This document shows, in pieces, positions 1 to 13,947 of a DNA stretch of 64,000 bases. This DNA is from Alphaproteobacteria bacterium. GTDB taxonomy: Bacteria; Pseudomonadota; Alphaproteobacteria; Micavibrionales; Micavibrionaceae. The notes under the pieces are model-generated. The model was given only the letters and a program-made list of their open reading frames with translations. It ran no database searches and was not told where the DNA came from. The DNA lies in NCBI GenBank assembly GCA_003245575.1, contig QKCR01000081.1, positions 283 to 64,282 on the forward strand. Reading direction: 5' to 3'. The stretch's first letter is position 1, and the number at the start of each line of letters is the position of its first letter. A program made the position numbers and the translations under genes.

Positions 1-986
1 ACGAAAATACCAGAAATTAATTTTTTATATTGGGAAATTAAATTTTCTCGAATTTCTTTTAATACTGAATTCCGTTCCGCATTAGAAATATAATCAATTA
101 AATCGGTTTCAGTGGCTTGAATGGATTTAACCCAGATTATATCCATAGGCCAGCGCGTCATATTTTTATCATTTGGATTTGGAACGGTATATTTGAATTC
201 TTTTAATGTTGTCGAAATTACATCTCCCACCATTTTTTCAAAATCGGCAAATGTCCTCAAATTCCATTTATTTAATTCCTTTTTTCCAGCTCGAATTTCA
301 ACACGCCAAATTTGCCCTTCAAATTCAGATTTTTTAATTCCCCATAATTTCCACCAATAAGATTTCTTAGTGGAAATAATTTCACGAGTTTTGTCGTAAA
401 GAACAACCTGACGATTTGGCATCTTACCAATTCGGACATATTCAACTGCTTGCCCTGTACTTTCTGTTTGTACGGACAATTCGCCAATAAATCCTTTTTT
501 TGTTCGACCCGCGCAGACGAAATTCAAATATGATGGCTGAAAATTCTCTTCAAAATGAAAATCTAGACAATAGTCAATTCGGCTAATGCGTTCTTGAGGA
601 ATTTTATCATTCTCCTCAGGACCTTTTGCCAGAAGACTTTCCAAAAGGACGGATAAAATCTTCTCTTTTGTCTTCTCATACCCGTACAAAGCAAGGCAAA
701 GGCTTCTTACCCTTACACGAACATTCCATTGGTCTCTAGACTCTCGGTCACCTACTAACCAGATTTCGCCATCAGGGCCAGTGCTAAATTGATATGTATA
801 GCCACCTCTTGCGCCTGTCTCATGTACCATGACGGGAAGATGGTTTGGCCCTAGTTCGACATAGGCAGGGGAGCGGCAACTCTGTGCTTCTTTCTTAGCC
901 TGTTCTAGAGTTTTTAGAATGGCAATAGGTACAGCACATTGAAAACTTATCTCAAGGCCATCAAAATTTTGGTAAATCAGTTTCAT
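1..986 (-). CDS. Replication initiation factor-like protein (Rep_trans / rolling-circle type), 3' end outside window
   Basis: Missing from the ORF track because it runs off the window. ATG at 986 on the minus strand, reading MKLIYQNFDGLEISFQCAVP... with no stop down to position 1. Motifs RIDYCLDF, VVLYDKTREI and WRVEIRAGKKEL resemble the R.D..D / YDK / RvE.r signature of replication-initiation-factor domain proteins. Confidence 0.5.
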   Translation of the reverse strand, partial: MKLIYQNFDGLEISFQCAVPIAILKTLEQAKKEAQSCRSPAYVELGPNHLPVMVHETGARGGYTYQFSTGPDGEIWLVGDRESRDQWNVRVRVRSLCLALYGYEKTKEKILSVLLESLLAKGPEENDKIPQERISRIDYCLDFHFEENFQPSYLNFVCAGRTKKGFIGELSVQTESTGQAVEYVRIGKMPNRQVVLYDKTREIISTKKSYWWKLWGIKKSEFEGQIWRVEIRAGKKELNKWNLRTFADFEKMVGDVISTTLKEFKYTVPNPNDKNMTRWPMDIIWVKSIQATETDLIDYISNAERNSVLKEIRENLISQYKKLISGIF

Positions 987-1012
987 TTCTAAATCCTTTC
1001 TAAATGTAAAAC

Positions 1013-1043
1013 TGTGGCCCCATGTTATAAGGATGGGGCCACA
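1013..1043 (-). terminator. Perfect 11-bp stem hairpin between the DUF736 gene and rep (terminator-like or regulatory)
   Basis: TGTGGCCCCAT (1013-1023) and ATGGGGCCACA (1033-1043) with a 9-nt loop. On the minus strand it starts 8 nt after the DUF736 stop and is followed by GTTTTACATTT. Confidence 0.4.
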
Positions 1044-1050
1044 AGGTTGA

Positions 1051-1425
1051 TTAAGCTGCCGCTGATTGATTGGCTTGACGGCGGCGAAAGGTAATATCCC
1101 AATCGCCTGAGTCGTTCTTAAAAGCTGCTACATTGAGGGCGTTGGGAAGGCTTGGGTCATCAATTGTGATGCTCAGAAATTCGAAATTGGCATCACCAAT
1201 TTGCGTTTTCTCCTTCTTCCATGCCGCACCGACTTGAATATCCTGCCCAGAATATCCAATTGCGCACACGATATAATCAGGCGCACCATCGGAATTCCGT
1301 AGGTTATTTGGAACCAGCTTGATTTTAAGCTGAATTTGGAGAGTTATGATCTCCCCGTGCAGCTCTTCACGGTTGCCTTGATACGCAGATTTTAAATATC
1401 CAATACGACTCATTTTTTTCTCCAT
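1051..1425 (-). CDS. DUF736 family protein (typical of alphaproteobacterial ICE/IME backbones)
   Basis: The 124-aa translation shows the DUF736 pattern: IGYLK..., GEIITLQIQLKIKLVPN, APDYIV, VGAAWKK, LSITIDDPSLP, and a C-terminal W.ITFRR. Confidence 0.65.
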   Translation of the reverse strand: MEKKMSRIGYLKSAYQGNREELHGEIITLQIQLKIKLVPNNLRNSDGAPDYIVCAIGYSGQDIQVGAAWKKEKTQIGDANFEFLSITIDDPSLPNALNVAAFKNDSGDWDITFRRRQANQSAAA

Positions 1426-1484
1426 TGAGTTCGATTGTTAAATTTACGAAGCGCACCGCGCGCTTCGCGCAGAGGAAGCATTGG

Positions 1485-1559
1485 TTTTGGGAGCAATGAG
1501 GCAGAGCTCCCCCTATGACAGTAAATGGAAATAAACTGTCATAGGGTTTGCTCCCAAAA
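1485..1559. repeat. Compound inverted repeat (two-tier hairpin) in the DUF736/HTH intergenic region; candidate origin or nick-site structure
   Basis: Outer arms are TTTTGGGAGCAA (1485-1496) and TTGCTCCCAAAA (1548-1559). Inner arms are a perfect 12 bp, CCCTATGACAGT (1511-1522) and ACTGTCATAGGG (1535-1546), with a 12-nt loop. A further GAAGCGC/GCGCTTC palindrome lies at 1448-1466. Confidence 0.6.
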
Positions 1560-1603
1560 TCCTCTAGGGCGCTTCCGGCTCCCCAGAGAGAAAACTTGAT
1601 TGT

Positions 1604-1876
1604 TTATGAGGTGTTGAGGCCAAGATCAGATGTAGAATTCCTGATTTGGCTCTGGATGTACTCGTCAATGTCGGATTGGCGATAGGCAACCTTGCGACCT
1701 ATCTTGACGAATTTAGGACCTTTGCCTTCCCACCGCCATTTTCTGAGTGTGGCAGCGGAAACGCATAGCATTTCTGAAACAATATCTGGTTTAAATAATA
1801 GGTTTTGCATTCCCGCGCCCCATCTAGCTTGTGTCAACCTTGATTGGCTTCCAACACAATTAGATTGCGCTTTCAT
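1604..1876 (-). CDS. Excisionase/AlpA-like helix-turn-helix DNA-binding protein
   Basis: SEMLCVSAATLRKWRWEGKGPKFVKIGRKVAYRQSDIDEYI is a typical MerR-superfamily excisionase-type HTH. An alternative ATG at 1810 (MQNLLF...) would give 68 aa. Confidence 0.65.
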   Translation of the reverse strand: MKAQSNCVGSQSRLTQARWGAGMQNLLFKPDIVSEMLCVSAATLRKWRWEGKGPKFVKIGRKVAYRQSDIDEYIQSQIRNSTSDLGLNTS

Positions 1877-1935
1877 GCAGAAAATATAAATTTACCTAAA
1901 AGGAAAATGGGTTACCTAAAAAGGTTTTAGGTAGG

Positions 1936-2928
1936 TTAATTTTTCGGTAAAAGAAAATTTGAATAGAGAGTGTCTCCGAAGAAGCTGGCAAATAGAATTC
2001 CGAGTACAAATTCATCATCAATTTCTATTGGAGCCTGTTTTTTATAGGTCAATATTTTCTCCATGAAATCCATATTCATCGAACTCTCAAATAAGGTTCT
2101 TTGATTTAAAATAGATGTTTGGGCTTGCTGAATGTACTTGTTGACTAGGCTTACTCTTATTTCCTGCAAATGTTGTAATGCTTTGTTCCGGTCAGAAATT
2201 GATCTTTCATGTTTCGCCCGTGGTTTTATGGATTTCCAGTCAATTCTCATAGAGAAAATCGTATAAAATATAGCTAAATATAAGGAGAGGGGAATTGGAT
2301 ATTTTTTCCCAAAATATTTCTTAATTTTATAGAGCTCTTCGAAAACGGATTGATCTGCTTTATAATTGAATACTTGTTTTGATATGTGTATTGCCAGACG
2401 TTCAGAGCATTTGGGTTCCTCTATAAGAAGATATGCGAAGACACCTGATAGTGTTTTCTGGAATGTTGTTTCAAATGATCTGTCTCTTTCCAGTTTCGGC
2501 AAAACGTATAAATCAATTAGATATAGATTTTCTTGGATTTTGTCTGGATTATCAAAATGATTTATAAAGGCGTCTACGGATAATAGTATATTGTGTTTAT
2601 ATGCTTCGTGAAAGAACCCGCATTCAAAGAAAATATCAAGCTCGGATTTAAGGAGGTTTGCTGCATTTGATAAGGCATTAGCTTTTTCTGTATTATTATG
2701 CTCAATGATACCCCTTAACATTTCAAAAAGTGTGTTTCTCCAGTTTTTATAGAGTTCGAATCCCTTAAGCCCTTCTAATGGAGATAAGGTATCACGAGTT
2801 TCCTCAATAACCGAAATATGGTCATACTCCAAGGACTGTTCCTTAAGGGACTTCTTACTTTTGCCTATAGGCTGTTTGGCTTTTTTCTTTAAGGACTGTT
2901 CCTTAAGGGATTTTGTTTGCTTAGGCAT
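1936..2928 (-). CDS. Hypothetical protein (island cargo, no recognisable domain)
   Basis: 330-aa ORF, very AT-rich, with a Lys-rich N-terminus containing a duplicated KSLKEQSL peptide. It lies 3 nt downstream of the integrase gene stop on the same strand. Confidence 0.5.
   Translation of the reverse strand: MPKQTKSLKEQSLKKKAKQPIGKSKKSLKEQSLEYDHISVIEETRDTLSPLEGLKGFELYKNWRNTLFEMLRGIIEHNNTEKANALSNAANLLKSELDIFFECGFFHEAYKHNILLSVDAFINHFDNPDKIQENLYLIDLYVLPKLERDRSFETTFQKTLSGVFAYLLIEEPKCSERLAIHISKQVFNYKADQSVFEELYKIKKYFGKKYPIPLSLYLAIFYTIFSMRIDWKSIKPRAKHERSISDRNKALQHLQEIRVSLVNKYIQQAQTSILNQRTLFESSMNMDFMEKILTYKKQAPIEIDDEFVLGILFASFFGDTLYSNFLLPKN
2831..2910. repeat. Perfect 20-bp direct repeat spaced exactly 60 bp, inside the 5' end of the cargo ORF
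   Basis: AAGGACTGTTCCTTAAGGGA occurs at 2831-2850 and 2891-2910. It contains the palindrome CCTTAAGG and encodes the duplicated KSLKEQSL. Confidence 0.8.
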
Positions 2929-2931
2929 TTC

Positions 2932-4095
2932 CTATAGAGCCTTTCGTGAATTGGTTATCAGGTTCCCTATAGAGGAAGCTGCATCCTGAACAGAATTCTT
3001 GGTTAAGTGCGCATATCTCTCGGACATTCTAGTGTCACCATGCCCCAAGAGCTTTGCTACCATCTGAAGGGAAAAGCCTTGTCCTATAAGGAGCGAGGCA
3101 AAAGTATGCCTTAAGTCATGGATGCGAACATCTTCTAATCCAGCTTCTTTGCGTATGCGATACCAAGGCTTTGTTGCATTGTTTAGAGGGGCGCTATCTT
3201 TGGCGCCTGCAATTATATAGGGGTTGCCTTCAATCTTGGGCGTCTTAACCAAAATGTCTAAGGCGCTCGGAGAGAGGTAAATAGTTCTTTTCCCTGTCTT
3301 GCTATCTGGCAAATTCAGAATACCGTTTGAGAAATCAACCCAAGCCCATTTGGCTGTCTGTATTTCAGAGAGCCTAGCGCCTGTTAGCATTAAGAGACGA
3401 ATGAGATTTAGAAAGTAGAGTGATTCCCTGCCTTCATGTTCTGCTTTGTCGAGTACGTCATTAAGCCTCTTGATTTCTTCTTGAGTTAGGAAGCGCTCGC
3501 GACTCTCTTCTTTATATTTTTGAATTCCTTTAACAGGATTAGTGTGCTGAGGTCGGATTTTCCAAGTCTCTGCCAGAGAAAACATTTTTGAGAGTGTTTG
3601 TAAAATACGGTTAGCTTGGGAAGGGGTATCCCTTAGAGCAGAGTGGAACTTGGCAATATCAAGTTTGGTAACAGACGCCGTTTTAAGACTGCCGAGCATG
3701 GGCTTTATAAACTTCTTGATATAAAACTTCTCTAATTTAAGAGTATTTTCTTTCTTATGAAGCTTGGAATGTTCTTCCATATATCGTTCGCATAGTTCTG
3801 ATACGGTAGGAGCCTTACGGGATACGGAGCGTTCCATAGAGGGGTCTTTCCCTTTGGCAATATCTGCAAGCCAGTCCTGCGCGACATCTCGGGCATTCTC
3901 GCAGGTAATTTGCCCATGAATACCTATAACGGGTTTTCTTTGCCGTCCTTCTTTATTTCGGTACTTTAAAAGATAGACTTTTCGTCCAAGGGGAGTGACC
4001 TTCACGCCAAAGCCTGAAATTTTGTCATCCCAAAAGATGCAATCAGCCTCTTGAGGCTCAAGTTTTTCTACATAAATTTTGGTCAGTTTTGGCAT
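2932..4095 (-). CDS. int: Tyrosine-type site-specific integrase (P4-like, N-terminal DUF4102 arm-binding domain)
   Basis: N-terminus FWDDKISGFGVKVTPLGRKVYLLKYR. C-terminal catalytic region LTGARLSEI ... HDLRHTFASLL ... LGHGDTRMSERYAH carries the R..HxxR..Y signature. Confidence 0.9.
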   Translation of the reverse strand: MPKLTKIYVEKLEPQEADCIFWDDKISGFGVKVTPLGRKVYLLKYRNKEGRQRKPVIGIHGQITCENARDVAQDWLADIAKGKDPSMERSVSRKAPTVSELCERYMEEHSKLHKKENTLKLEKFYIKKFIKPMLGSLKTASVTKLDIAKFHSALRDTPSQANRILQTLSKMFSLAETWKIRPQHTNPVKGIQKYKEESRERFLTQEEIKRLNDVLDKAEHEGRESLYFLNLIRLLMLTGARLSEIQTAKWAWVDFSNGILNLPDSKTGKRTIYLSPSALDILVKTPKIEGNPYIIAGAKDSAPLNNATKPWYRIRKEAGLEDVRIHDLRHTFASLLIGQGFSLQMVAKLLGHGDTRMSERYAHLTKNSVQDAASSIGNLITNSRKAL

Positions 4096-4255
4096 GGTCT
4101 AAAATTCCTAGGTACCACATAGGTACCAACAGAGAGAATTTAAGGGAGTTTTTTAGAGCCGTCAAGAAATCTCAAAAGTCTCATAAGTAATTGATATATA
4201 ATCATAAATATACAGAGGGAAATCTGGGGTGATTTTCAGTAACGCTATCGAAAAC

Positions 4256-4303
4256 ACCTTGCCAAGGTAAATGTCGAGGGTTCGAATCCCTTCACCCGCT
4301 CCA
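4256..4303 (+). pseudogene. 3'-half fragment of tRNA-Gly(GCC); putative att repeat of the island, not a functional tRNA
   Basis: CCTTGCCAAGG (anticodon loop UUGCCAA), the T-arm GAGGG-TTCGAAT-CCCTT and the 3' end CACCCGC-T-CCA match the bacterial tRNA-Gly(GCC) pattern. The upstream sequence has no GCGGGTG acceptor partner and no conserved D-loop. Confidence 0.7.
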
Positions 4304-4367
4304 GTCTAAAAATCTCCGAAAATCGTCAAATTTCCCAAGGTAAAAATAATCTGCCAAGATACATCCT

Positions 4368-5039
4368 ATGGCAGAGCAAAGACACATCATACTGGTACGT
4401 CATGTCCCTGTATCAAACCCTGATGGGATTTGGTACGGGCGCGATGTTGACTTGGCGCCGACCACTCCGCAACTGGAAAACTTGTTTAATCGGCTAGCCG
4501 ATGAATTGCCGACAGCTCCCGATAAAACAATTTGGATATCCTCTCCCTATCAAAGGGCCTTACACACGGCGCAATCCGTAGCAGATAAAATTCCCGCGCG
4601 CGATAAACCCGAAATAGAAATAAATAGGGGCTTTGTCGAACAACAATATGGCGTGATGGAGGGGCTACCGCATCAAGAAGCACTTTTGCTTCCGTCTGTT
4701 GCTCCATATTTACAAGACAGCTGGAATAACGGCATGGAAGGTGGAGAATCCATGTCTGTATTCCAGAGTCGCGTGGCAAATACATTAGAGAGTTTGAAGG
4801 AAAGAGCCTCTATTGAGAATAAAGATGCCGTAGTCTTCACTCATGGGGGCGTCATAATGGCGGCCTATGCCCACGTCACAGGCCAAAGAATGAGTGACAT
4901 ATTTAAGCAGCGTAAAGAAAAACTCGCGCCAAGCATTTCTTTTGTATCGCGCCTTGATCTGACATTCGAACGGAAGCAGGCCGCATGGAACACACCACCT
5001 GCCTACGAAACGGGAATACCTAAGCTAAAAGCTGAATAG
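4368..5039 (+). CDS. Histidine phosphatase family protein (phosphoglycerate mutase-like)
   Basis: N-terminal IILVRH (RH catalytic motif), GGESM...QSR, and the C-terminal FTHGGVI motif. Confidence 0.7.
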   Translation: MAEQRHIILVRHVPVSNPDGIWYGRDVDLAPTTPQLENLFNRLADELPTAPDKTIWISSPYQRALHTAQSVADKIPARDKPEIEINRGFVEQQYGVMEGLPHQEALLLPSVAPYLQDSWNNGMEGGESMSVFQSRVANTLESLKERASIENKDAVVFTHGGVIMAAYAHVTGQRMSDIFKQRKEKLAPSISFVSRLDLTFERKQAAWNTPPAYETGIPKLKAE

Positions 5040-5044
5040 AGAAC

Positions 5045-5824
5045 TTAAAGAGAAAATCCTTCACCGAGATAAACGCGGCGGACATCTTCGTTGACAACGA
5101 TTTCATCCGGCAGGCCTTCGGTCATCACCATACCGTCATGAAGTACATAAGCACGGTCCACAATCCCTAACGTATCGCGGACATTGTGGTCAGTAATCAA
5201 AACACCGATATTCCGGGTTTTGAGTTGCCCGATCAGGGCGCGAATATCGCCGACCGCAATCGGATCAATCCCCGCCAGCGGTTCATCAAGCAAGACAAAA
5301 TGCGGGCGAGAAGCAAGGGCTCGCGCAATCTCGACGCGGCGACGCTCCCCACCTGACAGTGCGATTGCAGGTGTACGGCGCAAGTGTGAGACTGAGAACT
5401 CAACGAGCAAATCTTCAAGCAATGCTTCCTTGTCATCATTATTCAGATCATTTTGCGTCTGGATAATAGACTTCAAATTATCTTCAACCGAAAGCCCGCG
5501 AAAGATTGAGGCTTCCTGCGGCAAATACCCGATACCGAGCCGCGCTCGGCGATACATAGGAAGGGTCGTAATCTCTTGCCCGTCCAGGAGAATATCGCCG
5601 CCGTCAGGCGGCAACAAACCCGTAATAATATAAAAACATGTTGTCTTTCCTGCGCCGTTAGGACCAAGAATAGCAACAGCTTCTCCACGTTGAACGCTTA
5701 AGGAAACATCACGTAGGACAGGACGTTTTTTGTATGATTTGGATAAATGTTGTGCAGCAAGACCCTTGACCGGCGGCCGTGTCGAACCTTTGCTTTGGGA
5801 GAAATGGAGAGGTGTAACGCTCAT
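5045..5824 (-). CDS. lptB: LPS export ABC transporter ATP-binding protein LptB
   Basis: Walker A GPNGAGKTT, signature LSGGERRRVEIARAL, Walker B FVLLDEP. It lies immediately downstream of lptA and lptC. Confidence 0.9.
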   Translation of the reverse strand: MSVTPLHFSQSKGSTRPPVKGLAAQHLSKSYKKRPVLRDVSLSVQRGEAVAILGPNGAGKTTCFYIITGLLPPDGGDILLDGQEITTLPMYRRARLGIGYLPQEASIFRGLSVEDNLKSIIQTQNDLNNDDKEALLEDLLVEFSVSHLRRTPAIALSGGERRRVEIARALASRPHFVLLDEPLAGIDPIAVGDIRALIGQLKTRNIGVLITDHNVRDTLGIVDRAYVLHDGMVMTEGLPDEIVVNEDVRRVYLGEGFSL

Positions 5825-5842
5825 GATTATTCTATCGACCTT

Positions 5843-6568
5843 CTATTTCTTTTTACCCGAAGACGGATAGAAAATACCTTTGACCCGAGGGCGATTTTTC
5901 TGGCCTGTGATGGTGCTGACTTTTGTGGTCAGGTTCATCTTGGCGTAATCCCCTTCAATCCAGTTATAACCTTGCATGATTTTTACAGTGCCGATTAATT
6001 CGGCAATGTTTGTGGCCTTGGTATAAATGGCCTTGTCACCGCTGGCTTTTTGCTCACCACCTGTGCTGATCTGGACAGATCCCATCGCCTCGGCGCGTTC
6101 CATTTCCTGACCATTCATAAAGACTTTGATCTCATCAGCAACCAGAATATCCTTGCCACGCGTGACTTGAGGACGGCTTGAACGGCTTGAAGAGTCTCCG
6201 GTCAAGGTAATCACACTGCCTGTAATGTCATAGACAGCTTTTGCACCTTCGGCGCGATCTGTCTTTCCGGCCTGTCCTGAAAGAATAACGACATGACCTT
6301 CAGCAGTGACTTTGTTCAAATCGCTGGTGCTGTTATTTTTCCCTTCATAGGCTGCCGTCAATGTATCTCCCGAAACAGAAAAATCACCTTGTTGGGCTTT
6401 GGCATTTCCGCGCGCTGTGTAGGTCCTGGCTGTCTGGTTCCATTCCAGAGCCTGATCGGCTGTGATCTCGAGTGGCACGTCTTCTGCAATAGCAGGCGCA
6501 CAAAACCCGATCCCGCCCAAAAACAAGGCGGCGGTCAGCAGGAAAGTAGAAGTCCGAACTTGAGACAT
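5843..6568 (-). CDS. lptA: LPS transport periplasmic protein LptA (OstA-like)
   Basis: Signal peptide followed by repetitive OstA-type beta-strand sequence (ITADQALEWNQ..., GNAKAQQGD..., GHVVI...). Positioned between lptC and lptB. Confidence 0.75.
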   Translation of the reverse strand: MSQVRTSTFLLTAALFLGGIGFCAPAIAEDVPLEITADQALEWNQTARTYTARGNAKAQQGDFSVSGDTLTAAYEGKNNSTSDLNKVTAEGHVVILSGQAGKTDRAEGAKAVYDITGSVITLTGDSSSRSSRPQVTRGKDILVADEIKVFMNGQEMERAEAMGSVQISTGGEQKASGDKAIYTKATNIAELIGTVKIMQGYNWIEGDYAKMNLTTKVSTITGQKNRPRVKGIFYPSSGKKK

Positions 6569-7287
6569 TATAATTGTGGCTCCTTATCAGAAGATGGCTC
6601 GGAAGACGAGCCGGGCGGGGGCGACTGGCGCAGGATCAGCTTGGCAGGTCCTTTAAAGATGACTTTATCTGTTTTTCCGTCAGCTTCCAAGCCTTGCGCG
6701 GAAATTTCTCCTGCAGGCCCGTGTCCGCTAACGCTGTCCTCAGAGGACATGGTCTGGTTGTCGATGTTGATATTCATGGTCTGTGAATGCAATTCATATC
6801 CCGTATCATGATTAATCAGGACATCGCCATTGAGCTGCAAAACACCGGATTTCTGGTCATAGTCACCCTGCACAGCCTTCAAAGCCATCCAATTCCCGCT
6901 TTTAAGATTGATGTCGGCAACTGGCTTATCCAAATGGATCATATCCATGTTCTCGGTATTCTGGGTCGCCTTGTCCGCAGTGATAGTATAAGGCTGGCTG
7001 TCATTATCTTCCGATTGGAATTTCGGATTAACCAACTCGTTGCGGCTCGCTGTCTGGGGAGAAATTTCATCACGCGGAATAGCTTTGAGTGGCGCAGAGT
7101 CTCGGTCAGACCATACCATCAGGACAACAACGATAGCTAATGCGGCAACCGGCAACATTAATCTCAGGCTGCGGACATAACGAGAGTAGAGATGGGTACG
7201 GGATGCGCGTGTTGCAATTTCCTCCTCGCTACGGACCAGACGGTCTGCGGAAGAGAGTGTTTGGGATATGTCCTGCTGCTCTGTCAT
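6568..7287 (-). CDS. lptC: LPS export system protein LptC
   Basis: A single N-terminal TM anchor (LMLPVAALAIVVVLMVW) plus a periplasmic beta-rich domain. Conserved kdsD-lptC-lptA-lptB order, with a 1-nt overlap with lptA. Confidence 0.65.
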   Translation of the reverse strand: MTEQQDISQTLSSADRLVRSEEEIATRASRTHLYSRYVRSLRLMLPVAALAIVVVLMVWSDRDSAPLKAIPRDEISPQTASRNELVNPKFQSEDNDSQPYTITADKATQNTENMDMIHLDKPVADINLKSGNWMALKAVQGDYDQKSGVLQLNGDVLINHDTGYELHSQTMNINIDNQTMSSEDSVSGHGPAGEISAQGLEADGKTDKVIFKGPAKLILRQSPPPGSSSEPSSDKEPQL

Positions 7288-7306
7288 AATATCCCCGACC
7301 CGAAGC

Positions 7307-8323
7307 CTAGACGAGGCCAGCTTTAAGAAGTTCCTGAATGCGGATCAAGCCGACAACATGTCCCGCGTCATCTGCAACAATCAGGGACGTAATCGGCGAA
7401 GACCCCTCATGACCAACCATGATTTCCAACGCTTTCACAGCAAGAATGTCTGCGCGAATGCTGCGAGGATTTTTGGTCATGATCTCTGACACTTTTCTTG
7501 TCAGAAGATCAGGTGCCATATGTCGTTTCAAATCTCCGTCTGTCACGATACCGATCAGGCTTTTCGCCTCATCAACGACGACAACAGATCCGAGGTTTTT
7601 GGCAGATAGAGTAATCAATGCGTCAGACATCAACGTATCTGCGCTAACGAAAGGCAAATCATCTCCCTTGACCATCAGGTCGGAAACTTTGCGCAACTTT
7701 TGTCCGAGTTTACCGCCAGGATGCCAGACGCGGAACTGCTCGGCTGTAAGGCCCATACGTTCGAGGAGCGCCACGGCAATTGCATCACCCAACGCCATCA
7801 TTTGTGTTGTTGACGTTGTCGGGGCAAGCCCGTTCGGGCAAGCTTCCGGAATTTTCGGCAGGATAAGCGCAATATCTGAATGCTGTGCCAGTGGACTATC
7901 GGGGTTTCCTGTCATGGCGATCAATGGAATATTAAACCGCTTCGCATATCCGATCATATCGGTCAGTTCGGCGTTGGTTCCCGAATAGGATAAAAGAATA
8001 ATCACATCATCCTCGGTAATCATTCCCAAGTCCCCATGGGATGCTTCACCGGGATGAATATAATAAGATGGTGTTGCCGTTGATGCGAGTGTTGCAGAGA
8101 TTTTACGTGCCACATGTCCGCTCTTGCCGATCCCGGCCACAATCAAACGACCGCGACCCTTATCTTTCATGGCTTGAATAGTCTCGATTGCGCGGACAAA
8201 CTCTCCATTGAGGGACTCGGAGAGAGCTTGAAGACCTGAGACTTCCGTTGCAAGGGTCCGTTTAGCAGAAGCTACATCGTCGAAATGTGTATCAGGGATT
8301 TGCTGCGTCATTGTTTGTGCCAT
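7307..8323 (-). CDS. kdsD: Arabinose-5-phosphate isomerase KdsD/KpsF (SIS + tandem CBS)
   Basis: SIS motif GIGKSGHVARKISATLASTATPS..HPGEASHGDLGMI and a C-terminal CBS pair. Confidence 0.9.
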   Translation of the reverse strand: MAQTMTQQIPDTHFDDVASAKRTLATEVSGLQALSESLNGEFVRAIETIQAMKDKGRGRLIVAGIGKSGHVARKISATLASTATPSYYIHPGEASHGDLGMITEDDVIILLSYSGTNAELTDMIGYAKRFNIPLIAMTGNPDSPLAQHSDIALILPKIPEACPNGLAPTTSTTQMMALGDAIAVALLERMGLTAEQFRVWHPGGKLGQKLRKVSDLMVKGDDLPFVSADTLMSDALITLSAKNLGSVVVVDEAKSLIGIVTDGDLKRHMAPDLLTRKVSEIMTKNPRSIRADILAVKALEIMVGHEGSSPITSLIVADDAGHVVGLIRIQELLKAGLV

Positions 8324-8339
8324 TCTTTAATCCTGAAAA

Positions 8340-8960
8340 CTATGAATTATGCGCGAAAATATCAATCTCCGGCCAGCCGACCAGATCAAGTTCGGCACGA
8401 GCAGGAAGAAAATCAAAACAGGCTTGCGCCAATTCTTTGCGACCCTCACGCACCAGCATCGGATCAATCGCATCCTTGATTTTGTGCAAATACAAAACAT
8501 CATTTGCAGCATAAACTTTTTGGTCCTCGCTTAAAGTCGCATTGCCCCAATCAGAAGATTGTTGTTGCTTGCTAAGCTCGACACCTAAAAGTTCACGGCA
8601 TAATTCTTTTAAAGAATGACGATCAGTAAATGTTCGTACCAAGCGGGATGCAATTTTGGTGCAATAAACAGGAGTACAATCGACGCCCATATAGGCCTTG
8701 ATCGAGGCAATATCAAAACGTCCGAAGTGAAAGATCTTAAGAATCTTTGGATCGGATAAAAGGCGGCGTAGATTTGGGGCAGCGTAATCAGATCCGACTG
8801 GAAACTGGACCAGATGCGCATCTCCGTCACCGAAGGACAGCTGAACCAGACACAAACGGTCACGAACTAAATTCAACCCCATGGTTTCTGTATCCACAGC
8901 AACCGAGGTCCCAAACGCCAGATCATCCGGCAAATCATTCTGATGTAAGTAAATTGTCAT
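8340..8960 (-). CDS. rnd: Ribonuclease D-like 3'-5' exonuclease (short form)
   Basis: DEDD exonuclease motifs VAVDTETMGL, FHFGRFDIA and YAANDVLYL. Confidence 0.8.
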   Translation of the reverse strand: MTIYLHQNDLPDDLAFGTSVAVDTETMGLNLVRDRLCLVQLSFGDGDAHLVQFPVGSDYAAPNLRRLLSDPKILKIFHFGRFDIASIKAYMGVDCTPVYCTKIASRLVRTFTDRHSLKELCRELLGVELSKQQQSSDWGNATLSEDQKVYAANDVLYLHKIKDAIDPMLVREGRKELAQACFDFLPARAELDLVGWPEIDIFAHNS

Positions 8961-9023
8961 TCACTCGGAGTACAGATTTTTGAGTGATTTTTCAAGTATT
9001 TTGCTGCGTTTACCCGTAAATCT

Positions 9024-10010
9024 CTAAACTCTGCTGCTTCGTTTGTCATGGGAAAGCAAGGCCTTCTCAATGGCAATAACTTCGGTTAACGCCGCTTCAA
9101 AATAGTCTTTTGAATCGGGAGAGAATGGTAAAAATCCGTCTCTAACGGCAAAAAGTGCTTTTTCTAAGGCCTCAAAGAAGGGGTTTTGAAGAGAAATGCA
9201 GACATATTCATTCTCTCCTGATTGGTTCTCCCCATACATCACAATATGATATTGTTCAGGCCCGCTCCGGTCTTTCCACACATTGAGGTAAGGTGAATAG
9301 ATTTTATAGGCGACGGCGTTGATGATCCCGCTCTTTTCAAGATGGTCTTTGACGTATTCGGTATAAGGAAGTTGATCTTTATAAAAGACATTATGAGCAT
9401 AAAGCTGCTCGGCAAAACTATGAAGACCGGAAATATGGTAAGGAATCCAGAGCGTAACCTTTTTGCCGTTTTCCGTCTTACCCTTGACGCCGAGCATCTG
9501 GAGAGAAGGATAATCATTAACATAATCAATTTTTTCCCACGGGCAGAGGCGTTCGCCCGAGAAAACGCCCCGTACGAGTACACCCTTTTCACTCACTTTC
9601 AGGCGAAACAAAAACGGGTCCAGCAAACATAAAATAGACGCAGGTCCAAAAATGAGAAGTAAAAGGGAAACACCTAAAAGATCTTCATCATGACGATAGC
9701 CGCGTGTACCGGGCAGAACAGGAGTAGGCCCATAATATTTTGTCCAAACGATATATAAAGGGATTGTAGCAAAAGCGAGACTTACCAGCCCGAGGGAAAC
9801 AATAACCTTTTTCGTGTGATTACTGTACCCATACGTCTTAACACGACCTTCTGCCCCACCATATGCGCTACTTTTAGTATGGGCTTTGATGCCGCCATAA
9901 AGGAGTTTGTAGAAAAAGTACGACACCCCGCCACCGATAATGATTTTAAGGATGATCTTAATAACGCTGGAATGGTCGGATTGCAGGATGGATTGAAAAA
10001 ATTCAGACAT
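9024..10010 (-). CDS. Hypothetical membrane protein
   Basis: Start moved to the ATG at 10010 (MSEFFQSIL...) because the longer track ORF overlaps tRNA-Leu. It has several N-terminal TM segments and a soluble C-terminal domain with no recognised family. Confidence 0.5.
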   Translation of the reverse strand: MSEFFQSILQSDHSSVIKIILKIIIGGGVSYFFYKLLYGGIKAHTKSSAYGGAEGRVKTYGYSNHTKKVIVSLGLVSLAFATIPLYIVWTKYYGPTPVLPGTRGYRHDEDLLGVSLLLLIFGPASILCLLDPFLFRLKVSEKGVLVRGVFSGERLCPWEKIDYVNDYPSLQMLGVKGKTENGKKVTLWIPYHISGLHSFAEQLYAHNVFYKDQLPYTEYVKDHLEKSGIINAVAYKIYSPYLNVWKDRSGPEQYHIVMYGENQSGENEYVCISLQNPFFEALEKALFAVRDGFLPFSPDSKDYFEAALTEVIAIEKALLSHDKRSSRV

Positions 10011-10093
10011 AGAACGACCCCGACAAATGAACTCAGAGGATAGTGTGCGCGTAAAATCTATAAAAAAGGTAAAATCAGTATGGAAAGGAAGAA

Positions 10094-10180
10094 TGGTGCC
10101 CTGAAGAAGACTCGAACTTCCACGTCCCGGAGGACACAAGTACCTGAAACTTGCGCGTCTACCAATTCCGCCACCAGGGC
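10094..10180 (-). tRNA. tRNA-Leu (anticodon CAG), 87 nt with encoded CCA
   Basis: The reverse complement is GCCCTGGTGGCGGAATTGGTAGACGCGCAAGTTTCAGGTACTTGTGTCCTCCGGGACGTGGAAGTTCGAGTCTTCTTCAGGGCACCA. It folds with a 7-bp acceptor stem, anticodon stem CAAGT/ACTTG with loop TTCAGGT, a long variable arm and the T-loop TTCGAGT. Confidence 0.93.
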
Positions 10181-10377
10181 ACTGGTGTAAAAGCCTTTAC
10201 GGTAGGGCGATACATCTATCCGAGCGTGTCAGAAATGTCAATTCAAATATAATTTTGCAGGCGAGGCAGAAATTGACGTTTTTTTAGCTTTTTTTTTACT
10301 AGAATTTTGAGATCATAGAGAGACCGAAATCCAGTTCGGGATTCTATGCCTTTTCGTGCTAAACCATAGGAAAAATT

Positions 10378-11199
10378 ATGAAAATACTCATTGTCGATCG
10401 GGACGAAATGACGGCTAACCTGATTAAATCACGGGTCGAGCCTCTGGGTCACACAGTTCTGATACATCCTGAAAAAGGCGAGAGTCTCGATAAAATCGTT
10501 CGTGAAGGATGGGATATAATTTTCATTGACCCGTCCCCTCTGACGAGCGTCAAACCGATGACGATGCAAATTCGTAGAAACGTTCGCCAGAATGTCCATT
10601 TGGTCCTTCTGTCCGATCACATGACGGAAGAAGAAGCGACAGTGGGCGGATTTAACGAATTGCTCGCGAAACCGATTAATCCGACAAAGATAGAAGAAAT
10701 TCTGGATCACTCGGAATATATGAACAGCTTGACCAAACATTTGGCAAACGATCAGATTGATTTCCCGAGTGCGGGCGGCGTGATTGCAAAGTCAGCCTAT
10801 AATCAGCTTTTCTTGTCTTGTATCGACCGCGCAGGTCGTTATGGCGAAACAGCCCATACGATTTTTATCACTTTTAAGAACTACAATGATATTTCTGCAA
10901 AAGACGGGTCTTACGAGTCAGAGATGATTAGCGCAAAGCTGGCTCAACATCTCGTACGTATTCGCCGTCAATCAGATATTATCGCGCAAATTCGTGCGAA
11001 TGAATATGCTCTTCTCTTGCTGCGTCCTTTGAACGAGTCAGAACCGATCGAGGCAGCGAACCGTTTCGCGGAATCTATATCAAAATGCACCGATTTACCA
11101 TCCACGCCCTATATGGATGTCGAAATTGGCGTCACGCTTTTGAGCCTTCCGGAAGGCAAAAAAATCGTGGAGCATCAGCTCGTCATTCGCCAGGAATAG
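10378..11199 (+). CDS. Response regulator: REC domain + degenerate GGDEF domain (A-site RANEY, I-site RQSD retained)
   Basis: The N-terminus MKILIVDRDE...WDIIFIDPSP is receiver-like. The C-terminal domain aligns to GGDEF, with RxxD (RQSD) exactly 5 residues upstream of RANEY in place of GG[DE]EF. Confidence 0.7.
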   Translation: MKILIVDRDEMTANLIKSRVEPLGHTVLIHPEKGESLDKIVREGWDIIFIDPSPLTSVKPMTMQIRRNVRQNVHLVLLSDHMTEEEATVGGFNELLAKPINPTKIEEILDHSEYMNSLTKHLANDQIDFPSAGGVIAKSAYNQLFLSCIDRAGRYGETAHTIFITFKNYNDISAKDGSYESEMISAKLAQHLVRIRRQSDIIAQIRANEYALLLLRPLNESEPIEAANRFAESISKCTDLPSTPYMDVEIGVTLLSLPEGKKIVEHQLVIRQE

Positions 11200-11258
11200 A
11201 CACCTCATCCGGAAACAATCCGGTCTCAGCGTTTCATCGAAACGCTGGGGTATGGCTC

Positions 11259-11615
11259 ATGGTTGTTTTGTCCGCATTCACCCTCTCCGCTTGTGCCACA
11301 ACTGAAAAAGAGCAACCGCAAAGTGCTTCGGTTCGGGCGGCTAAAGCCTGCATGAAATCTCTTCGTCAGTTTGTTCCCGCAGAACCTGAATATTATATCG
11401 GGGCCTGCACAAATACAGGAGTCTGGGTTGTCGAACATCGCAATAAAGATACAGGCGAAAAGATTGCCGAATATGATTTTGTGAACAAGCTCTACGGCGG
11501 AATGGAAACCGGCGGCGGTCTTGTCTCTGTCGAGTCATTGGGAGGTGAAGTTGAACAAGGTTTTTCCCTCACACAAAAAAACCTGAACGCAGCGCTCCTC
11601 AAACCCTCCAAATAA
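11259..11615 (+). CDS. Small putative lipoprotein
   Basis: ATG at 11259 gives MVVLSAFTLSAC with the lipobox LSAC. The longer track ORF start overlaps the preceding gene. Confidence 0.5.
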   Translation: MVVLSAFTLSACATTEKEQPQSASVRAAKACMKSLRQFVPAEPEYYIGACTNTGVWVVEHRNKDTGEKIAEYDFVNKLYGGMETGGGLVSVESLGGEVEQGFSLTQKNLNAALLKPSK

Positions 11616-11684
11616 TTAGTCTCTAAGAAAAGAAAAAGGACTGCACCATGCAGCCCTTTTCCGAGTGGGGACTTGTTATGATCC

Positions 11685-12413
11685 TTACGGATTATATTTT
11701 GTTTTAACCTGATAGGTTTTTCCGTTTGGTGTCGTATAGACTTTAACGGCTTCACCATTCGGCAGAATTTGTGTGGTGACACTACCGCCACGTACAGTTT
11801 GCGTTGTGGCTGTTTTATTTTCTTTATCATAGGAAGTTGTTGCGGACCCTTCATAACCATTCACACCATTATAGGTGGTGGTCTTCTGTCCGTCAGAATA
11901 AGATCCTGTTACGGTTGAGCCATTTTGATAGGCTTTGGTAACGGTTTGGCTATCTTTATCATAGTTGGACGTTTTCCCACCTGTTTGACCATTAGGTCCG
12001 TAATAGGTCGAAGATTTCTGTCCGTCTGAATAGGTTGTCGTTTTTGATGCACCCGCTGTGCTTTGGGTCGTAACAGTTTTATTGTCCTTATCATAGTTTG
12101 TAGAGGAAGAGCGCTCATTGCCGTTATAACCTGTTACTTCACGATCATAGCTTTTGGTTTCTTTGTTGAAAGACCCGCTACCCGATTTCGAAAAGCTGCC
12201 TTTAGGTGTGGTGGCTTCTTTACCCCAGCTGTGGCCTGACGGTTTGCTTGTTCCGCCTCCTAAAGAAAACTCGCGTGCTGACGCTTCGGTTGTATGCCCT
12301 GCAATTCCAAATGCGAGAGCCAGAATGGCAACAGCTGTCCAGATGGAAAATCTTGTGTCTGCCGACATAGTGGTCGGCACTTGTACGGTATAAACTTGGT
12401 TTTGTGTACGCAT
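11685..12413 (-). CDS. Secreted Ser/Thr/Gly/Tyr-rich repeat protein
   Basis: Signal peptide FSIWTAVAILALAFGIAGHTTEASA. Repeated modules are [ST]NYDK[DE]..T.T and YSDGQK..TY.G.NG. The start is assigned to the ATG at 12413, 6 nt after GAGGAG; GTG at 12431 and ATG at 12419 are alternatives. Confidence 0.6.
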   Translation of the reverse strand: MRTQNQVYTVQVPTTMSADTRFSIWTAVAILALAFGIAGHTTEASAREFSLGGGTSKPSGHSWGKEATTPKGSFSKSGSGSFNKETKSYDREVTGYNGNERSSSTNYDKDNKTVTTQSTAGASKTTTYSDGQKSSTYYGPNGQTGGKTSNYDKDSQTVTKAYQNGSTVTGSYSDGQKTTTYNGVNGYEGSATTSYDKENKTATTQTVRGGSVTTQILPNGEAVKVYTTPNGKTYQVKTKYNP

Positions 12414-12572
12414 CTTCATCTCCTCACACACTGCCCCTCATTTCGGGGGTTACCAAACATCAACGCATCTAGAATAACATTCCCCCCACAGCTTTGACAC
12501 GACTCTTGATATTTTTTTCCTGAAAAGCATATATTTTTGTAACAAATAGGGGGATATGGGCGAATATCACAT

Positions 12573-13154
12573 ATGAAAATAAAAAAGATTCATTTAAAAT
12601 CAGATGGTTATGAATTTAACCCCCTAAGACGTCGCTTATTACTTTTTATAGGGGGCGGAATGCTTCTATGGACAGCCGATAGAGCAGGATTGCTGGGTAG
12701 ATCAGCTCGGGCCGCAACAGGCGAGACCAATCGGAAATGGGAAGATCAGGAAGGAAAAGTCATCAAAATGACCAAGTCAGATCAGGAATGGAAAAAAGAG
12801 CTCGGTGATAAAGAGTATAATGTTTTGCGGGAAGAAGGAACGGAACGCCCTTTCACCTCGTCTTTGCTGGATGAACATCGGGATGGAGTTTATGTCTGCG
12901 CAGCATGTGGACTACCGTTGTTCAAATCAGGTTCGAAATATAATTCAGGCACAGGTTGGCCAAGCTTCTATCAGGCAATCGAAGGACATGTCGAAACCAA
13001 AACAGATTACAAACTGGTTCTACCAAGAACAGAATATCATTGCGCAAGATGTGGAGGTCATCAGGGACATGTGTTTGAAGACGGCCCCGACCCGACCGGC
13101 CTTAGATACTGTAATAACGGCGTAGCATTACGCTTCCAGGAACAGAAAGAATAG
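12573..13154 (+). CDS. msrB: Peptide-methionine (R)-S-oxide reductase MsrB, with Tat-like signal
   Basis: CAACGLPLF...GWPSF and CARCGGHQGHVFEDGP...RYC motifs. The N-terminus has RRRLLLFIGGG. Confidence 0.9.
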   Translation: MKIKKIHLKSDGYEFNPLRRRLLLFIGGGMLLWTADRAGLLGRSARAATGETNRKWEDQEGKVIKMTKSDQEWKKELGDKEYNVLREEGTERPFTSSLLDEHRDGVYVCAACGLPLFKSGSKYNSGTGWPSFYQAIEGHVETKTDYKLVLPRTEYHCARCGGHQGHVFEDGPDPTGLRYCNNGVALRFQEQKE

Positions 13155-13161
13155 GGTTAAC

Positions 13162-13821: not shown

Positions 13822-13947
13822 AGCCTTAGGGTTCTAGAGATCAAGCAACAAAAAAACAGTGTAGAAACAGGTGTTTTTACCTGTTTTTCATGTTACTGTG
13901 CTATCCGTTGATATGCATATCATTATAGCTAATAACAGGTTTTCTTT

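Follow-up and report, generated by a model that had tools for sequence, protein, structure and literature searches.

Evidence for a small non-conjugative element integrated in a tRNA-Gly(GCC) gene of a Micavibrio-like alphaproteobacterium

We analyzed a 64,000-nt stretch of DNA (the window) from a MAG of a Micavibrio-like alphaproteobacterium, and we conclude that positions 1-4303 are very probably the right-hand (attR) part of an integrated, non-conjugative element of ~9 kb in tRNA-Gly(GCC), which would work by the mechanism proposed below. An earlier note on this DNA had likened the element to some ICE/IME families. That comparison is too generous, because we found no conjugation genes: there is no VirB4 in the assembly, which is 89.7% complete, and there are no conjugation genes in a complete sister element in another genome, G010.

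A displaced part of tRNA-Gly(GCC) forms the right boundary of the island

The boundary is marked by 48 nt on the plus strand (4256-4303; ACCTTGCCAAGGTAAATGTCGAGGGTTCGAATCCCTTCACCCGCTCCA) that begin on the 5' side of the anticodon stem and end with CCA. In two congeners, G006 and G009, the intact tRNA-Gly(GCC) of 75 nt ends in the identical sequence (48/48 nt), and so does the tRNA of G010. The preceding 27 nt of the G006 and G009 tRNA do not match, and identity stops abruptly at position 28. A 48-nt repeat beginning at the anticodon stem is one that we take to fit the anticodon-loop sublocation class, reportedly defined by Williams in 2002. On the element side, the 160 nt between the integrase start (4095) and the fragment, a distance that the earlier note had given correctly, form the arm of attR (P arm; 4096-4255), including the integrase leader and promoter region, and align with the attR arm of G010.

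Could 4225-4303 instead be a full-length tRNA gene of degenerate or unusual form, or could the junction be an assembly chimera? The Rfam tRNA model does give a weak full-length alignment at 4227-4298, but it scores 17.9 bits (E = 8.3) against a gathering score of 29, and ARAGORN reports no tRNA at 4225-4303. Identity to the congeneric tRNA breaks off as described, and the same junction occurs in the independent assembly G010 with shared element-side sequence (...CTATCGAAAACAC). These results effectively refute both possibilities.

Beyond the fragment lies native chromosome, as judged from the spacer and from comparison of orthologues: a 64-nt spacer and a His_Phos_1 gene (4304-5039, plus strand). 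The spacer is near-identical to the one behind the tRNA repeat in G004. Comparison with genomes lacking the island, a check that the earlier note had suggested, showed that G006 and G009 hold an intact tRNA-Gly(GCC) at exactly this position, directly upstream of the His_Phos orthologue, in the order trx-ybaK-(MCP)-tRNA-Gly(GCC)-His_Phos. Another contig of our own assembly, C84, begins with this left flank (trx, ybaK, MCP). Judged from these sequence comparisons, 4256-4303 is confirmed as the core of attR, at which the island ends on its right. The displaced att repeat that had been proposed is thus supported by the empty site in G006 and G009 and by a sister element with an intact tRNA in G010.

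A complete sister element occupies the same site in G010

G010 (Micavibrio sp. UBA6212) carries at this site a sister element (L039) of 9.1 kb in all, to which our contig is 83.3% identical over 4630 nt, from the very first base of the contig. The order in G010 is intact tRNA-Gly(GCC), arm repeats, KAP-NTPase cargo, Rep, DUF736, HTH, protein X, integrase, arm repeats and 48-nt fragment, which is the layout foreseen in the earlier note, with the intact tRNA at the left and the fragment at the integrase end. The tRNA (6088-6162; 72 bits in Rfam) is the left bound of the element. A direct repeat of 52 nt with one mismatch lies at 6115-6166 and 15219-15270, the right copy adjoining the integrase, and arm repeats lie at 6207-6236 and 15070-15099. 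The single mismatch is ACC in the tRNA and ACA in the fragment, which locates the crossover to the 3' side of the third position in the repeat. Decayed att remnants also accumulate at this locus in G010.

In our own genome the window starts only 282 nt from the contig end, so that the leftward extension proposed in the earlier note has no room in this assembly, and tRNA-Gly(GCC) was not found among the 160 contigs. For these reasons the left junction and the intact tRNA are not seen here; we infer them, strongly, from the arrangement in G010. The break at the contig start looks like an assembly break, because homology to the complete G010 element reaches the very first contig base; within its first 79 nt the contig codes for a stretch 100% identical to the C-terminal 26 aa of c235, a cargo-side gene of G010. 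Neither a second arm motif nor a contig overlap was found in the whole assembly, and an exact-match scan of metagenome contigs, directed at the circular form, attP or an empty site, gave no match.

The missing tRNA and the missing second arm motif could also mean that the left part of the island and the rebuilt tRNA were deleted or rearranged, leaving the fragment as a dead scar beside decaying genes; the locus does collect decayed att remnants, as G010 attests. We consider such a stranded remnant very improbable. Each of the five ORFs is intact and shows purifying selection, the G010 homology extends to the first contig base, and the MAG is incomplete, with 33 tRNAs and no contig shorter than 2.5 kb. 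Moreover, tRNA-Gly(GCC) is normally indispensable.

The integrase adjoins the fragment and an arm repeat

The island (1-4255) has a GC content of 39.8%, compared with 47.1% in the remaining window and 46.1% in the genome, and only 0.12% of 4.3-kb genome windows have a GC content as low. Its five intact ORFs all lie on the minus strand. Both the AT-richness and the common strand (5/5) had been noted earlier and hold.

The gene next to the fragment (2932-4095, minus strand) encodes a tyrosine integrase with an N-terminal arm-binding domain of P4/DUF4102 type, in agreement with the earlier P4-like call: we found Arm-DNA-bind_3, the SAM-like domain Phage_int_SAM_3 and Phage_integrase, along with a match to phrog_1 (8.5e-74). 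The stretches GARLSE, HDLRH and ERYAH can be read as bearing the catalytic Arg, His-x-x-Arg and Tyr. The protein is 91% identical to its counterpart in G010 (dN/dS 0.053), 72% to that in G123 and 52% to that in L018.

Immediately upstream of the integrase gene lies an arm-type repeat (4110-4128, plus strand; 11-nt period), AGGTACCA-cat-AGGTACCA, identified by motif comparison; it is the sole occurrence of the motif in our assembly. The AGGTACCA motif is present at both ends of the G010 element and 48 nt after tRNA-Gly(CCC) in G123, and a variant, GGTGCCTA, is present at both ends of L018. Both of these loci belong to the same integrase group; L018 lies at tRNA-Pro(CGG) with a 67-nt repeat, and its integrase adjoins the fragment. 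In this group, an integrase at the fragment end is the rule. The commoner arrangement in tRNA islands, seen in G004, L020, L041, L043 and L046, has the integrase beside the intact tRNA.

Protein X belongs to the backbone

The ORF at 1936-2928 (minus strand), termed protein X here, had been taken for cargo. We found instead that it keeps its place between the integrase and HTH genes in G010, L018 and L049, with a dN/dS of 0.21 against the G010 copy, and we therefore assign it to the backbone; the true cargo is beyond Rep, off the contig. Protein X is rare, with only 19 relatives among 1.84 billion representatives, and has no Pfam, PHROG or PADLOC match. Its AF2 model (pLDDT 70.7) is helical throughout and has no fold match.

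The earlier call of an excisionase-like HTH protein proved sound. The gene at 1604-1876 (minus strand) encodes an HTH_17 (AlpA/excisionase-type) DNA-binding protein (PF12728, E = 3.5e-10) that matches phrog_66, 'excisionase and transcriptional regulator', at 1.5e-8. Its start is probably the Met at 1810, giving 68 aa; relatives are genes of 66-69 aa.

A Rep_trans-fold protein follows DUF736 and a conserved hairpin

The DUF736 gene (1051-1425, minus strand; PF05284, E = 2e-19), correctly named in the earlier note, is single-copy in the genome (dN/dS 0.12 against G010) and in all related loci compared lies directly upstream of Rep. Between it and the HTH gene is a nested-hairpin element (1440-1575, minus strand) that folds as DNA at -43.5 kcal/mol (z = -6.5). 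Over 14 elements, the share of paired cells is 94.5% and compensatory changes occur in 19/34 pairs, compared with 38-45% of cells and 4-9 pairs in slid controls. By its sequence the hairpin would be a single-strand origin or nick region or, alternatively, the leader RNA of DUF736-Rep; its G-U wobbles favor the gene-sense strand, and an RNA leader with no origin function is possible.

The last gene encodes a predicted Rep_trans-fold nicking or initiator protein of 381 aa (contig C106:123-1268, minus strand), of which the window holds codons 1-328 (1-986); the gene ends 160 nt left of the window. The protein itself has no Pfam match, although 20/51 homologues match PF02486 at E <= 0.01. The best PDB sequence for the family profile is 4CIJ, and with the AF2 model (pLDDT 90.1) Foldseek finds 4CIJ at E = 1e-10 and 4CWE at 1.3e-7. 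Invariant in the family are D9, R136, D138, D142, Y197, K199 and E230, and likewise the motifs R-x-D-x3-D, Y-x-K-x-x-E and W-R-V-E-x-R. The published Rep_trans active site comprises a catalytic Tyr, a Lys at +2, a Glu at +5 and three metal carboxylates (PMC4797284), to which the motifs of Rep correspond. Homologues, profile, structure model and active-site motifs thus agree on the Rep_trans-like assignment made earlier. An extra C-terminal three-helix domain covers ~80 aa, and the gene is under purifying selection (dN/dS 0.075 against G010).

Mobility of the element and role of Rep

Element genes compared with G010 have dN/dS of 0.05-0.21 and pS of 0.32-0.63, and five flanking host genes have pS of 0.74-0.81, which is saturated. 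The two element copies are therefore far younger than their hosts, indicating horizontal movement of the element. Its replication after excision, or its mobilization, we only infer.

In the preferred reading, the circular element would bear an attP with a copy of the last ~48 nt of tRNA-Gly(GCC), pointing away from the integrase gene. The integrase would bind the AGGTACCA repeats on both arms and exchange strands within the anticodon loop or 3' of it. This would restore the tRNA at the cargo end (attL) and move its former 3' part to the integrase end (attR). Excision would have the HTH_17 protein as its directionality factor, and the Rep_trans-fold protein would nick the excised circle, leading to rolling-circle replication, to transfer of one strand into helper machinery, or to both. 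The missing left part would lie in the assembly gap between the starts of contigs C84 and C106, and with it the intact tRNA, the second arm repeat, a c235-like gene and cargo that is probably of KAP-NTPase type.

A somewhat unlikely alternative, compatible with the preferred reading, is that Rep acts chiefly as a MOBT-type conjugative relaxase, like NicK of ICEBs1 and Orf20 of Tn916, and that the element is mobilizable, borrowing a helper type IV secretion system, with replication secondary. Relaxases of the Rep_trans type are indeed known from ICEs and IMEs (Carr et al. 2016, PMC4797284). Rep is the only relaxase candidate in the element, which lacks transfer genes, and pS places the movement of the element between species. 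Yet the assembly has no VirB4-type ATPase and the element no coupling protein. To our knowledge, reports of MOBT relaxases are confined to Firmicutes. In addition, a capsid-bearing prophage-like element of Thalassospira contains a related DUF736 and Rep module, which points to a role in replication.

That same locus, pCSC3H3 of Thalassospira marina, in which DUF736 and Rep (34% identical) precede genes for a DUF87 ATPase, a protein annotated as 'major capsid protein P2' and a cell-wall hydrolase, raises a further possibility: the element could derive from, or be a satellite of, a tailless PM2-like (corticovirus-type) rolling-circle phage whose DUF736 and Rep replicon it would have kept, with defense cargo in place of the virion genes and packaging by a helper phage. 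The small size of the islands in this family (9-11 kb), their AlpA-type gene and their defense cargo would suit such an origin, but we think it improbable: capsid and ATPase homologues were found in no Micavibrionales locus nor in our genome (tblastn, E <= 1e-3 to 1e-4), Rep has no match in 50,697 phage records, and there is no recognizable packaging signal or capsid-redirecting gene.

Comparison with known systems

Like Islander-type tRNA islands (Hudson, Lau and Williams 2015, PMC4383910), in which a tyrosine integrase splits a tRNA gene that the island restores, the element has a co-oriented 3' fragment at its far end. It differs in that only one end is assembled and in that the integrase lies at the displaced-fragment end.

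Rep shares fold and active-site motifs with the Rep_trans (PF02486) proteins RepC/RepD of pT181, RepSTK1 (4CIJ), RstA of filamentous phage, NicK and Orf20. It differs from them in lacking its own Pfam match, in its C-terminal domain, and in residing in alphaproteobacterial integrative islands, always preceded by DUF736 and the putative structured leader.

Helper-dependent 'hitcher' elements, integrative mobilizable elements among them, were reportedly treated by Guedon and colleagues in 2017 (PMC5704250) and in PMC11389934. Like these, the island is small, encodes an integrase and an excisionase-type protein of its own, has only one DNA-processing protein and carries accessory cargo but no transfer apparatus; unlike them, it has no recognized oriT or helper, and its DNA-processing protein may be purely replicative.

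In the same bacterial group, Micavibrio aeruginosavorus ARL-13 has islands of 11-27 kb, described as ICE-like, with integrases and several adjoining tRNA genes; the Rep_trans and DUF736 backbone and the att anatomy are not described there (Wang et al. 2011, PMC3189940). The PM2-like element of pCSC3H3 shares the DUF736 and Rep module, but where it has capsid P2, the DUF87 ATPase and a lysis gene, Micavibrionales elements have defense or other cargo. Taken together, the element is of an ordinary kind, and it belongs to a barely described family of small islands that have their own rolling-circle replication gene and usually carry anti-phage cargo.

A truncated tRNA gene marks the right end of an integrated island

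The earlier note read window positions 4256-4303 as a tRNA-Gly(GCC) cut down to its part from the anticodon stem to the CCA end, with no valid full-length tRNA at 4225-4303. We found that this stretch (ACCTTGCCAAGGTAAATGTCGAGGGTTCGAATCCCTTCACCCGCTCCA) matches the final 48 nt of the 75-nt tRNA-Gly(GCC) of two congeners, G006 and G009, at 48 of 48 positions, and that the 27 nt preceding it are unrelated to that gene. Therefore, the fragment extends from the 5' side of the anticodon stem to the CCA. ARAGORN called no tRNA at 4225-4303, and the Rfam tRNA model scored 17.9 bits in this region (E = 8.3) against a gathering score of 29, so both parts of the reading held.

The genes on the island side of the fragment had been described as all lying on the minus strand and as AT-richer than the adjacent core genes. 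Indeed, all five share that strand, and the GC content of 1-4255 was 39.8%, compared with 47.1% elsewhere in the window and 46.1% in the genome. GC as low as the island's occurred in just 0.12% of 4.3-kb genome windows. Reading away from the fragment, the genes encode an integrase (2932-4095), a protein without a family match, which we refer to as protein X (1936-2928), an HTH_17 protein (1604-1876; PF12728 at 3.5e-10), a DUF736 protein (1051-1425; PF05284 at 2e-19), and a protein with a Rep_trans fold and motifs, Rep. The Rep gene occupies window positions 1-986 and is complete on the contig (C106:123-1268; 381 aa), which extends 282 nt to the left of the window and no further.

The integrase was proposed to be P4-like, and it has the features of arm-binding (P4/DUF4102-type) enzymes: an Arm-DNA-bind_3 domain (PF13356), a SAM-like core-binding domain (PF14659), and a catalytic domain (PF00589) with the conserved Arg, His-x-x-Arg, and Tyr. 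The stretches GARLSE, HDLRH, and ERYAH, which we read as carrying these residues, are all present, and the protein matched phrog_1 at 8.5e-74. The HTH_17 protein is small, carries a PF12728 winged helix, and is encoded beside the integrase module. Its match to phrog_66 ("excisionase and transcriptional regulator") agrees with the Pfam match and with its description as excisionase-like, and a role in directionality is predicted.

The tRNA-Gly(GCC) locus is an integration hot spot

The His_Phos_1 gene at window 4368-5039 has orthologues in five congeners. Immediately upstream of His_Phos, G006 and G009 have an intact tRNA-Gly(GCC) and no island; comparison with genomes lacking the island thus revealed the same site empty. 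Farther upstream of the tRNA, both empty sites carry trx and ybaK, with a chemotaxis-receptor (MCP) gene added in G009. The closest relative, G004 (75% amino acid identity), has a different occupant. Its contig opens with an intact tRNA-Gly(GCC), which is adjoined by an unrelated integrase that is 24% identical to the window's. This island of 10.7 kb (L012, G004:C3:1-13000, positions 51-10831) encodes AlpA, a second recombinase, Abi_2, and a type III restriction-modification pair, and it is bounded on the right by a 20-nt repeat of the tRNA 3' end, after which come the spacer and His_Phos gene that the window also has. Because the locus is occupied by different islands, we conclude that tRNA-Gly(GCC) is an integration hot spot in the genus, where two unrelated integrases use different sublocations (the 48-nt and the 20-nt repeat).

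A complete sister element is present in Micavibrio sp. UBA6212

In Micavibrio sp. UBA6212 (G010), a Rep that shares 94% identity with the window's is encoded about 7 kb upstream of the His_Phos orthologue, and this region (L039) contains a complete element. It begins with an intact tRNA-Gly(GCC) (L039 6088-6162; 72 bits, Rfam) and an arm repeat, TCCAGGTACCACATAGGTACCAGC, a putative integrase-binding site (6207-6236). Genes for a KAP-family NTPase of 1187 aa (6474-10037) and a 235-aa protein, c235 (10065-10772), follow. Rep, DUF736, HTH, and X lie between c235 and the integrase (13895-15067), after which come a second arm repeat (15070-15099) and the second copy of a 52-nt repeat with one mismatch (15219-15270). 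The 3' tDNA fragment is downstream of its cognate tDNA and co-oriented with it, which is the arrangement of the Islander criterion. Our contig (region L003) aligned at positions 1-4607 to L039 10691-15288 with 83.3% identity, from the first base of the contig to 20 nt past the fragment, and the first 79 nt of the contig encode the final 26 residues of c235 with 100% identity to G010. The mismatch between the G010 repeat copies is ACC in the tRNA and ACA in the fragment. Therefore, the fragment copy owes its 5' edge to the element and the crossover lies farther 3', a position that fits exchange in the anticodon loop.

Beyond the sister element, L039 (G010:C8:204000-223900) contains at 15338-16300 three more decayed copies of the tRNA-Gly 3' end (AATCCCTTCACCCGCTCCAG; at 15385, 16077, and 16215), and a decayed arm motif, CCTAGGTACCATTTTGATACCA, is found at about 16279 beside an attL-like flank. 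The decayed copies, downstream of the sister attR, look like tandem scars of earlier integrations.

The left end of the island is predicted to fall between two contigs

The genome studied here is a metagenome-assembled genome of 2.30 Mb in 160 contigs (89.7% complete). On the left of the tRNA, G010 has a ybaK-like gene, a trx-like gene, and two others, all of which map to the beginning of another contig of this assembly, C84. Here, 178 nt separate an MCP gene from the contig end; in G009, an MCP homologue has the same position beside the tRNA. C84 and C106, the contigs flanking the island, both break at the island. The gap from position 1 of C84 to position 1 of C106 should contain the tRNA, the cargo, and the second arm repeat, which we would expect in the form AGGTACCA-n3-AGGTACCA.

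We searched the assembly for these missing parts. Whole-genome ARAGORN over the 160 contigs yielded 33 tRNA genes and no intact tRNA-Gly(GCC), the sole glycine tRNA being tRNA-Gly(TCC) on C87. The T-arm of that gene was also the only match in the assembly to the 301-nt att region. No second copy of the arm motif was found in the assembly with up to 4 mismatches, no k-mer overlaps were detected for the end of C106, and tblastn with the G010 KAP NTPase gave no match in it. The smallest contig is 2.5 kb, and therefore pieces that were short or differed in coverage have probably been lost from the assembly. An exact-pattern scan for attR or attP returned nothing from metagenome contigs and G010 itself alone from genome contigs. 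None of the small Logan contigs tested as circles had terminal overlaps, and one, L019, ends inside both repeat copies. We conclude that the truncated tRNA beside the island is confirmed and that comparison supports its origin by integration; the left junction of this genome is what we infer.

Integrase position is shared among related elements

The integrase of G010 is 91% identical to that of the window, in the same layout at tRNA-Gly(GCC). The next relative, in G123, is 72% identical over the assembled part and belongs to an element at tRNA-Gly(CCC), with AGGTACCACATAGGTACCA 48 nt past the tRNA. A metagenomic element, L018, encodes a 52% identical integrase and is located at tRNA-Pro(CGG); its repeat is 67 nt long, and both ends carry GGTGCCTA arm repeats. 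In G010 as well as in L018, matching arm-type repeats are thus present at the two ends of the element. The order in G010, G123, and L018 is tRNA, arm, cargo, Rep, DUF736, HTH, X, integrase, arm, fragment. Location of the integrase at the fragment end is a feature of the integrase group and no peculiarity of the window copy. ARAGORN also called a "tRNA-Gly(GCC)" just past Rep at L018 11400-11472; we rejected it as an att partner, as it has the wrong orientation and is below the Rfam gathering score. Its acceptor stem is poor, and a false call or a tRNA-like relic is the probable explanation.

Other elements with DUF736 and Rep carry unrelated arm-binding integrases that adjoin an intact tRNA (Ala, Phe, Gln, or Val), and one further locus is at tRNA-Tyr, where the integrase gene was not identified. 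Relative to the integrase, both groups have the same gene order, and the orientation of the tRNA-like core of attP is the sole difference. One element, L048 (G270:C7:3000-22900), contains the DUF736 and Rep module in two tandem copies at 6389-9319, with Rep at 6795-7892 and 8147-9319; tRNA-Thr and tRNA-Gln adjoin.

The element copies are younger than their genomes

We compared window 1-4095 with L039 10813-15067, together with five flanking host genes. For Rep and DUF736, pS was 0.32-0.34 and dS 0.41-0.45 (dN/dS 0.075 and 0.12, respectively). For the integrase and X, pS was 0.57-0.63 and dS 1.05-1.39 (dN/dS 0.053 and 0.21, respectively). The five host genes had a pS of 0.74-0.81 and saturated dS. 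We conclude that the element genes are under purifying selection and that the two copies are much younger than their two genomes. Therefore, the copies either entered the same tRNA gene independently or were exchanged. The element was mobile in the recent past, and the dS mosaic suggests modular exchange, with different histories for the integration and replication modules.

Rep is predicted to be a Rep_trans-fold protein

The initiator had been called Rep_trans-like, and we asked what this name is based on. The window Rep had no match of its own to Pfam, PHROG, or PDB sequences, and nothing to the PF02486 model even at E <= 10. Homologues at E <= 0.001 numbered 145; among 51 that were aligned, 20 matched PF02486 (Rep_trans) at E <= 0.01, the best at 5e-9, and 5 matched Phage_CRI. 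With the family profile, the best PDB sequence was 4CIJ, a Rep_trans structure, at a weak E = 0.16, in an alignment that lines up the RxDxxxD and RWP..W motifs. An AF2 model of Rep (pLDDT 90.1, pTM 0.85) retrieved 4CIJ (E = 1e-10) and 4CWE (1.3e-7) in Foldseek, followed by TBP folds, a likeness of the Rep_trans structure that was likewise noted in the structure paper (PMC4797284). The model has the crescent-shaped beta-sheet predicted to correspond to the catalytic fold of RepSTK1/RepDE.

Across the 51 sequences, D9, R136, D138, D142, Y197, K199, E202, R228, E230, and R232 are invariant or near-invariant. The published Rep_trans active site consists of a catalytic Tyr, a Lys at +2, a Glu at +5, and three metal-holding carboxylates (PMC4797284). 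Y197/K199/E202 and D9/D138/E230 fit this site, a correspondence made by pattern and not by superposition. In addition, Rep matched genes annotated as "replication initiation factor" on Bacillus plasmids by tblastn (E = 3e-7). From the fold and motif evidence, the name Rep_trans-like is therefore correct although the Pfam model fails on the window protein. On its structural model, we take Rep to be a Rep_trans-fold protein with predicted nicking activity.

A covarying hairpin precedes DUF736

The 178 nt that separate the HTH gene from DUF736 fold into a nested hairpin (window 1440-1575, minus strand; -43.5 kcal/mol, z = -6.5), which is conserved in the equivalent spacer of 13 related loci. Across the 14 elements, the structure was 94.5% paired and 19 of 34 pairs had compensatory changes, compared with 38-45% paired and 4-9 compensatory pairs in slid controls; none of 500 shuffles reached the observed values. 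The gene-sense strand is rich in G-U pairs, which argues for a single-stranded role and against a replication or nick origin in the form of a double-strand cruciform. The hairpin would then act as an RNA leader or as single-stranded DNA. It is not among the families of Rfam 15, and we dismissed Rfam "mir-46" matches at 1494-1571 as chance matches to the hairpin. A 2026 preprint describes a covarying motif immediately upstream of DUF736 genes, which may be the same motif (bioRxiv 10.64898/2026.10.21.760802).

Protein X is a rare protein: 1.84 billion representatives yielded 19 relatives, and word-based homology searches retrieved at most 5 proteins. It had no Pfam, PHROG, or defence-model match and no fold match, and its model is all-helical (pLDDT 70.7). 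The N-terminal 40 residues (window 2820-2928) are lysine-rich and predicted to be disordered (pLDDT about 30), and KSLKEQSL occurs twice in the N-terminus, 25 residues apart.

Cargo, transfer, and relationship to known elements

Past Rep, the relatives encode an OLD-type ATPase with TOPRIM, SMC-like ATPases, GmrSD with a methylase, MmeI, a ResIII helicase, HerA, TCAD9, and a KAP NTPase, some of which may fall outside the element, as the far boundary is unmapped at several loci. Where it can be named, the cargo is mostly of predicted anti-phage function (KAP NTPase, OLD-type ATPase, GmrSD with methylase, and MmeI). At one locus, L045 (G207:C2:692500-712400), a 1056-aa Cas9-like protein (HNH_4, RuvC_III, and Cas9 lobes) is encoded at 10491-13661, some 2 kb downstream of Rep, in or near the island.

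An integrative conjugative element would require a type IV secretion system of its own, with a VirB4-type ATPase and a coupling protein. A VirB4-type ATPase (PF03135) had no match in the genome studied here, and the complete G010 element consists of the KAP NTPase, c235, Rep, DUF736, HTH, X, and the integrase, with no conjugation genes and nothing else; we therefore rejected ICE status. The Rep_trans-fold protein beside the integrase could be a candidate IME relaxase.

We also considered a phage origin. In a PHROG search of the assembled part of the island, which lacks the cargo end, the integrase and HTH were the sole matches, and Rep matched none of 50,697 phage records. A link to a virus-like element came from the Thalassospira marina megaplasmid pCSC3H3 (L052, NZ_CP024200.1 638904-658016, positions 7841-15982), where DUF736 and a 34% identical Rep homologue are followed by a DUF87 ATPase, a gene annotated as "major capsid protein P2", and a cell-wall hydrolase. 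We regard this as a PM2-like prophage-like element that has the replicon in common with the islands. Homologues of its capsid and ATPase genes were found neither in the Micavibrionales loci nor in our genome. With the hallmark genes absent and Rep lacking a phage match, we rejected a filamentous or PM2-like prophage, or a known satellite (P4-like or PICI), for the assembled copies. Since the DUF736 and Rep replicon is common to at least one virus-like element, the satellite reading is left open, and we assign it a low probability for the Micavibrionales islands. As a speculation that we consider improbable, DUF736, leader, and Rep_trans would be the replicon of a lineage of tailless, rolling-circle, PM2-like alphaproteobacterial phages, with the islands as defence satellites spread in helper capsids among predatory bacteria, or alternatively the islands would be the first mobilisable islands of MOBT type outside Firmicutes.

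Taken together, one end of a mobile island is mapped to the nucleotide, and comparison shows the form expected of the missing end. These results define a recurrent backbone of integrase, X, HTH_17, structured element, DUF736, and Rep_trans-fold protein, which recurs in Micavibrionales and other Alphaproteobacteria with swapped integrases and tRNA targets. They also give a fold-based name to a family of "hypothetical proteins" (Rep) and place DUF736 and a covarying non-coding element in a context of replication or transfer. As far as we found, the element family has no description in the literature, Micavibrio islands having been published in general terms alone (PMC3189940). Current understanding is not overturned by these findings: the element is a tRNA-integrated island of an ordinary kind, helper-dependent or self-replicating. 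DUF736 is a universal gene of ICEMlSymR7A-type elements too (PMC8627217).
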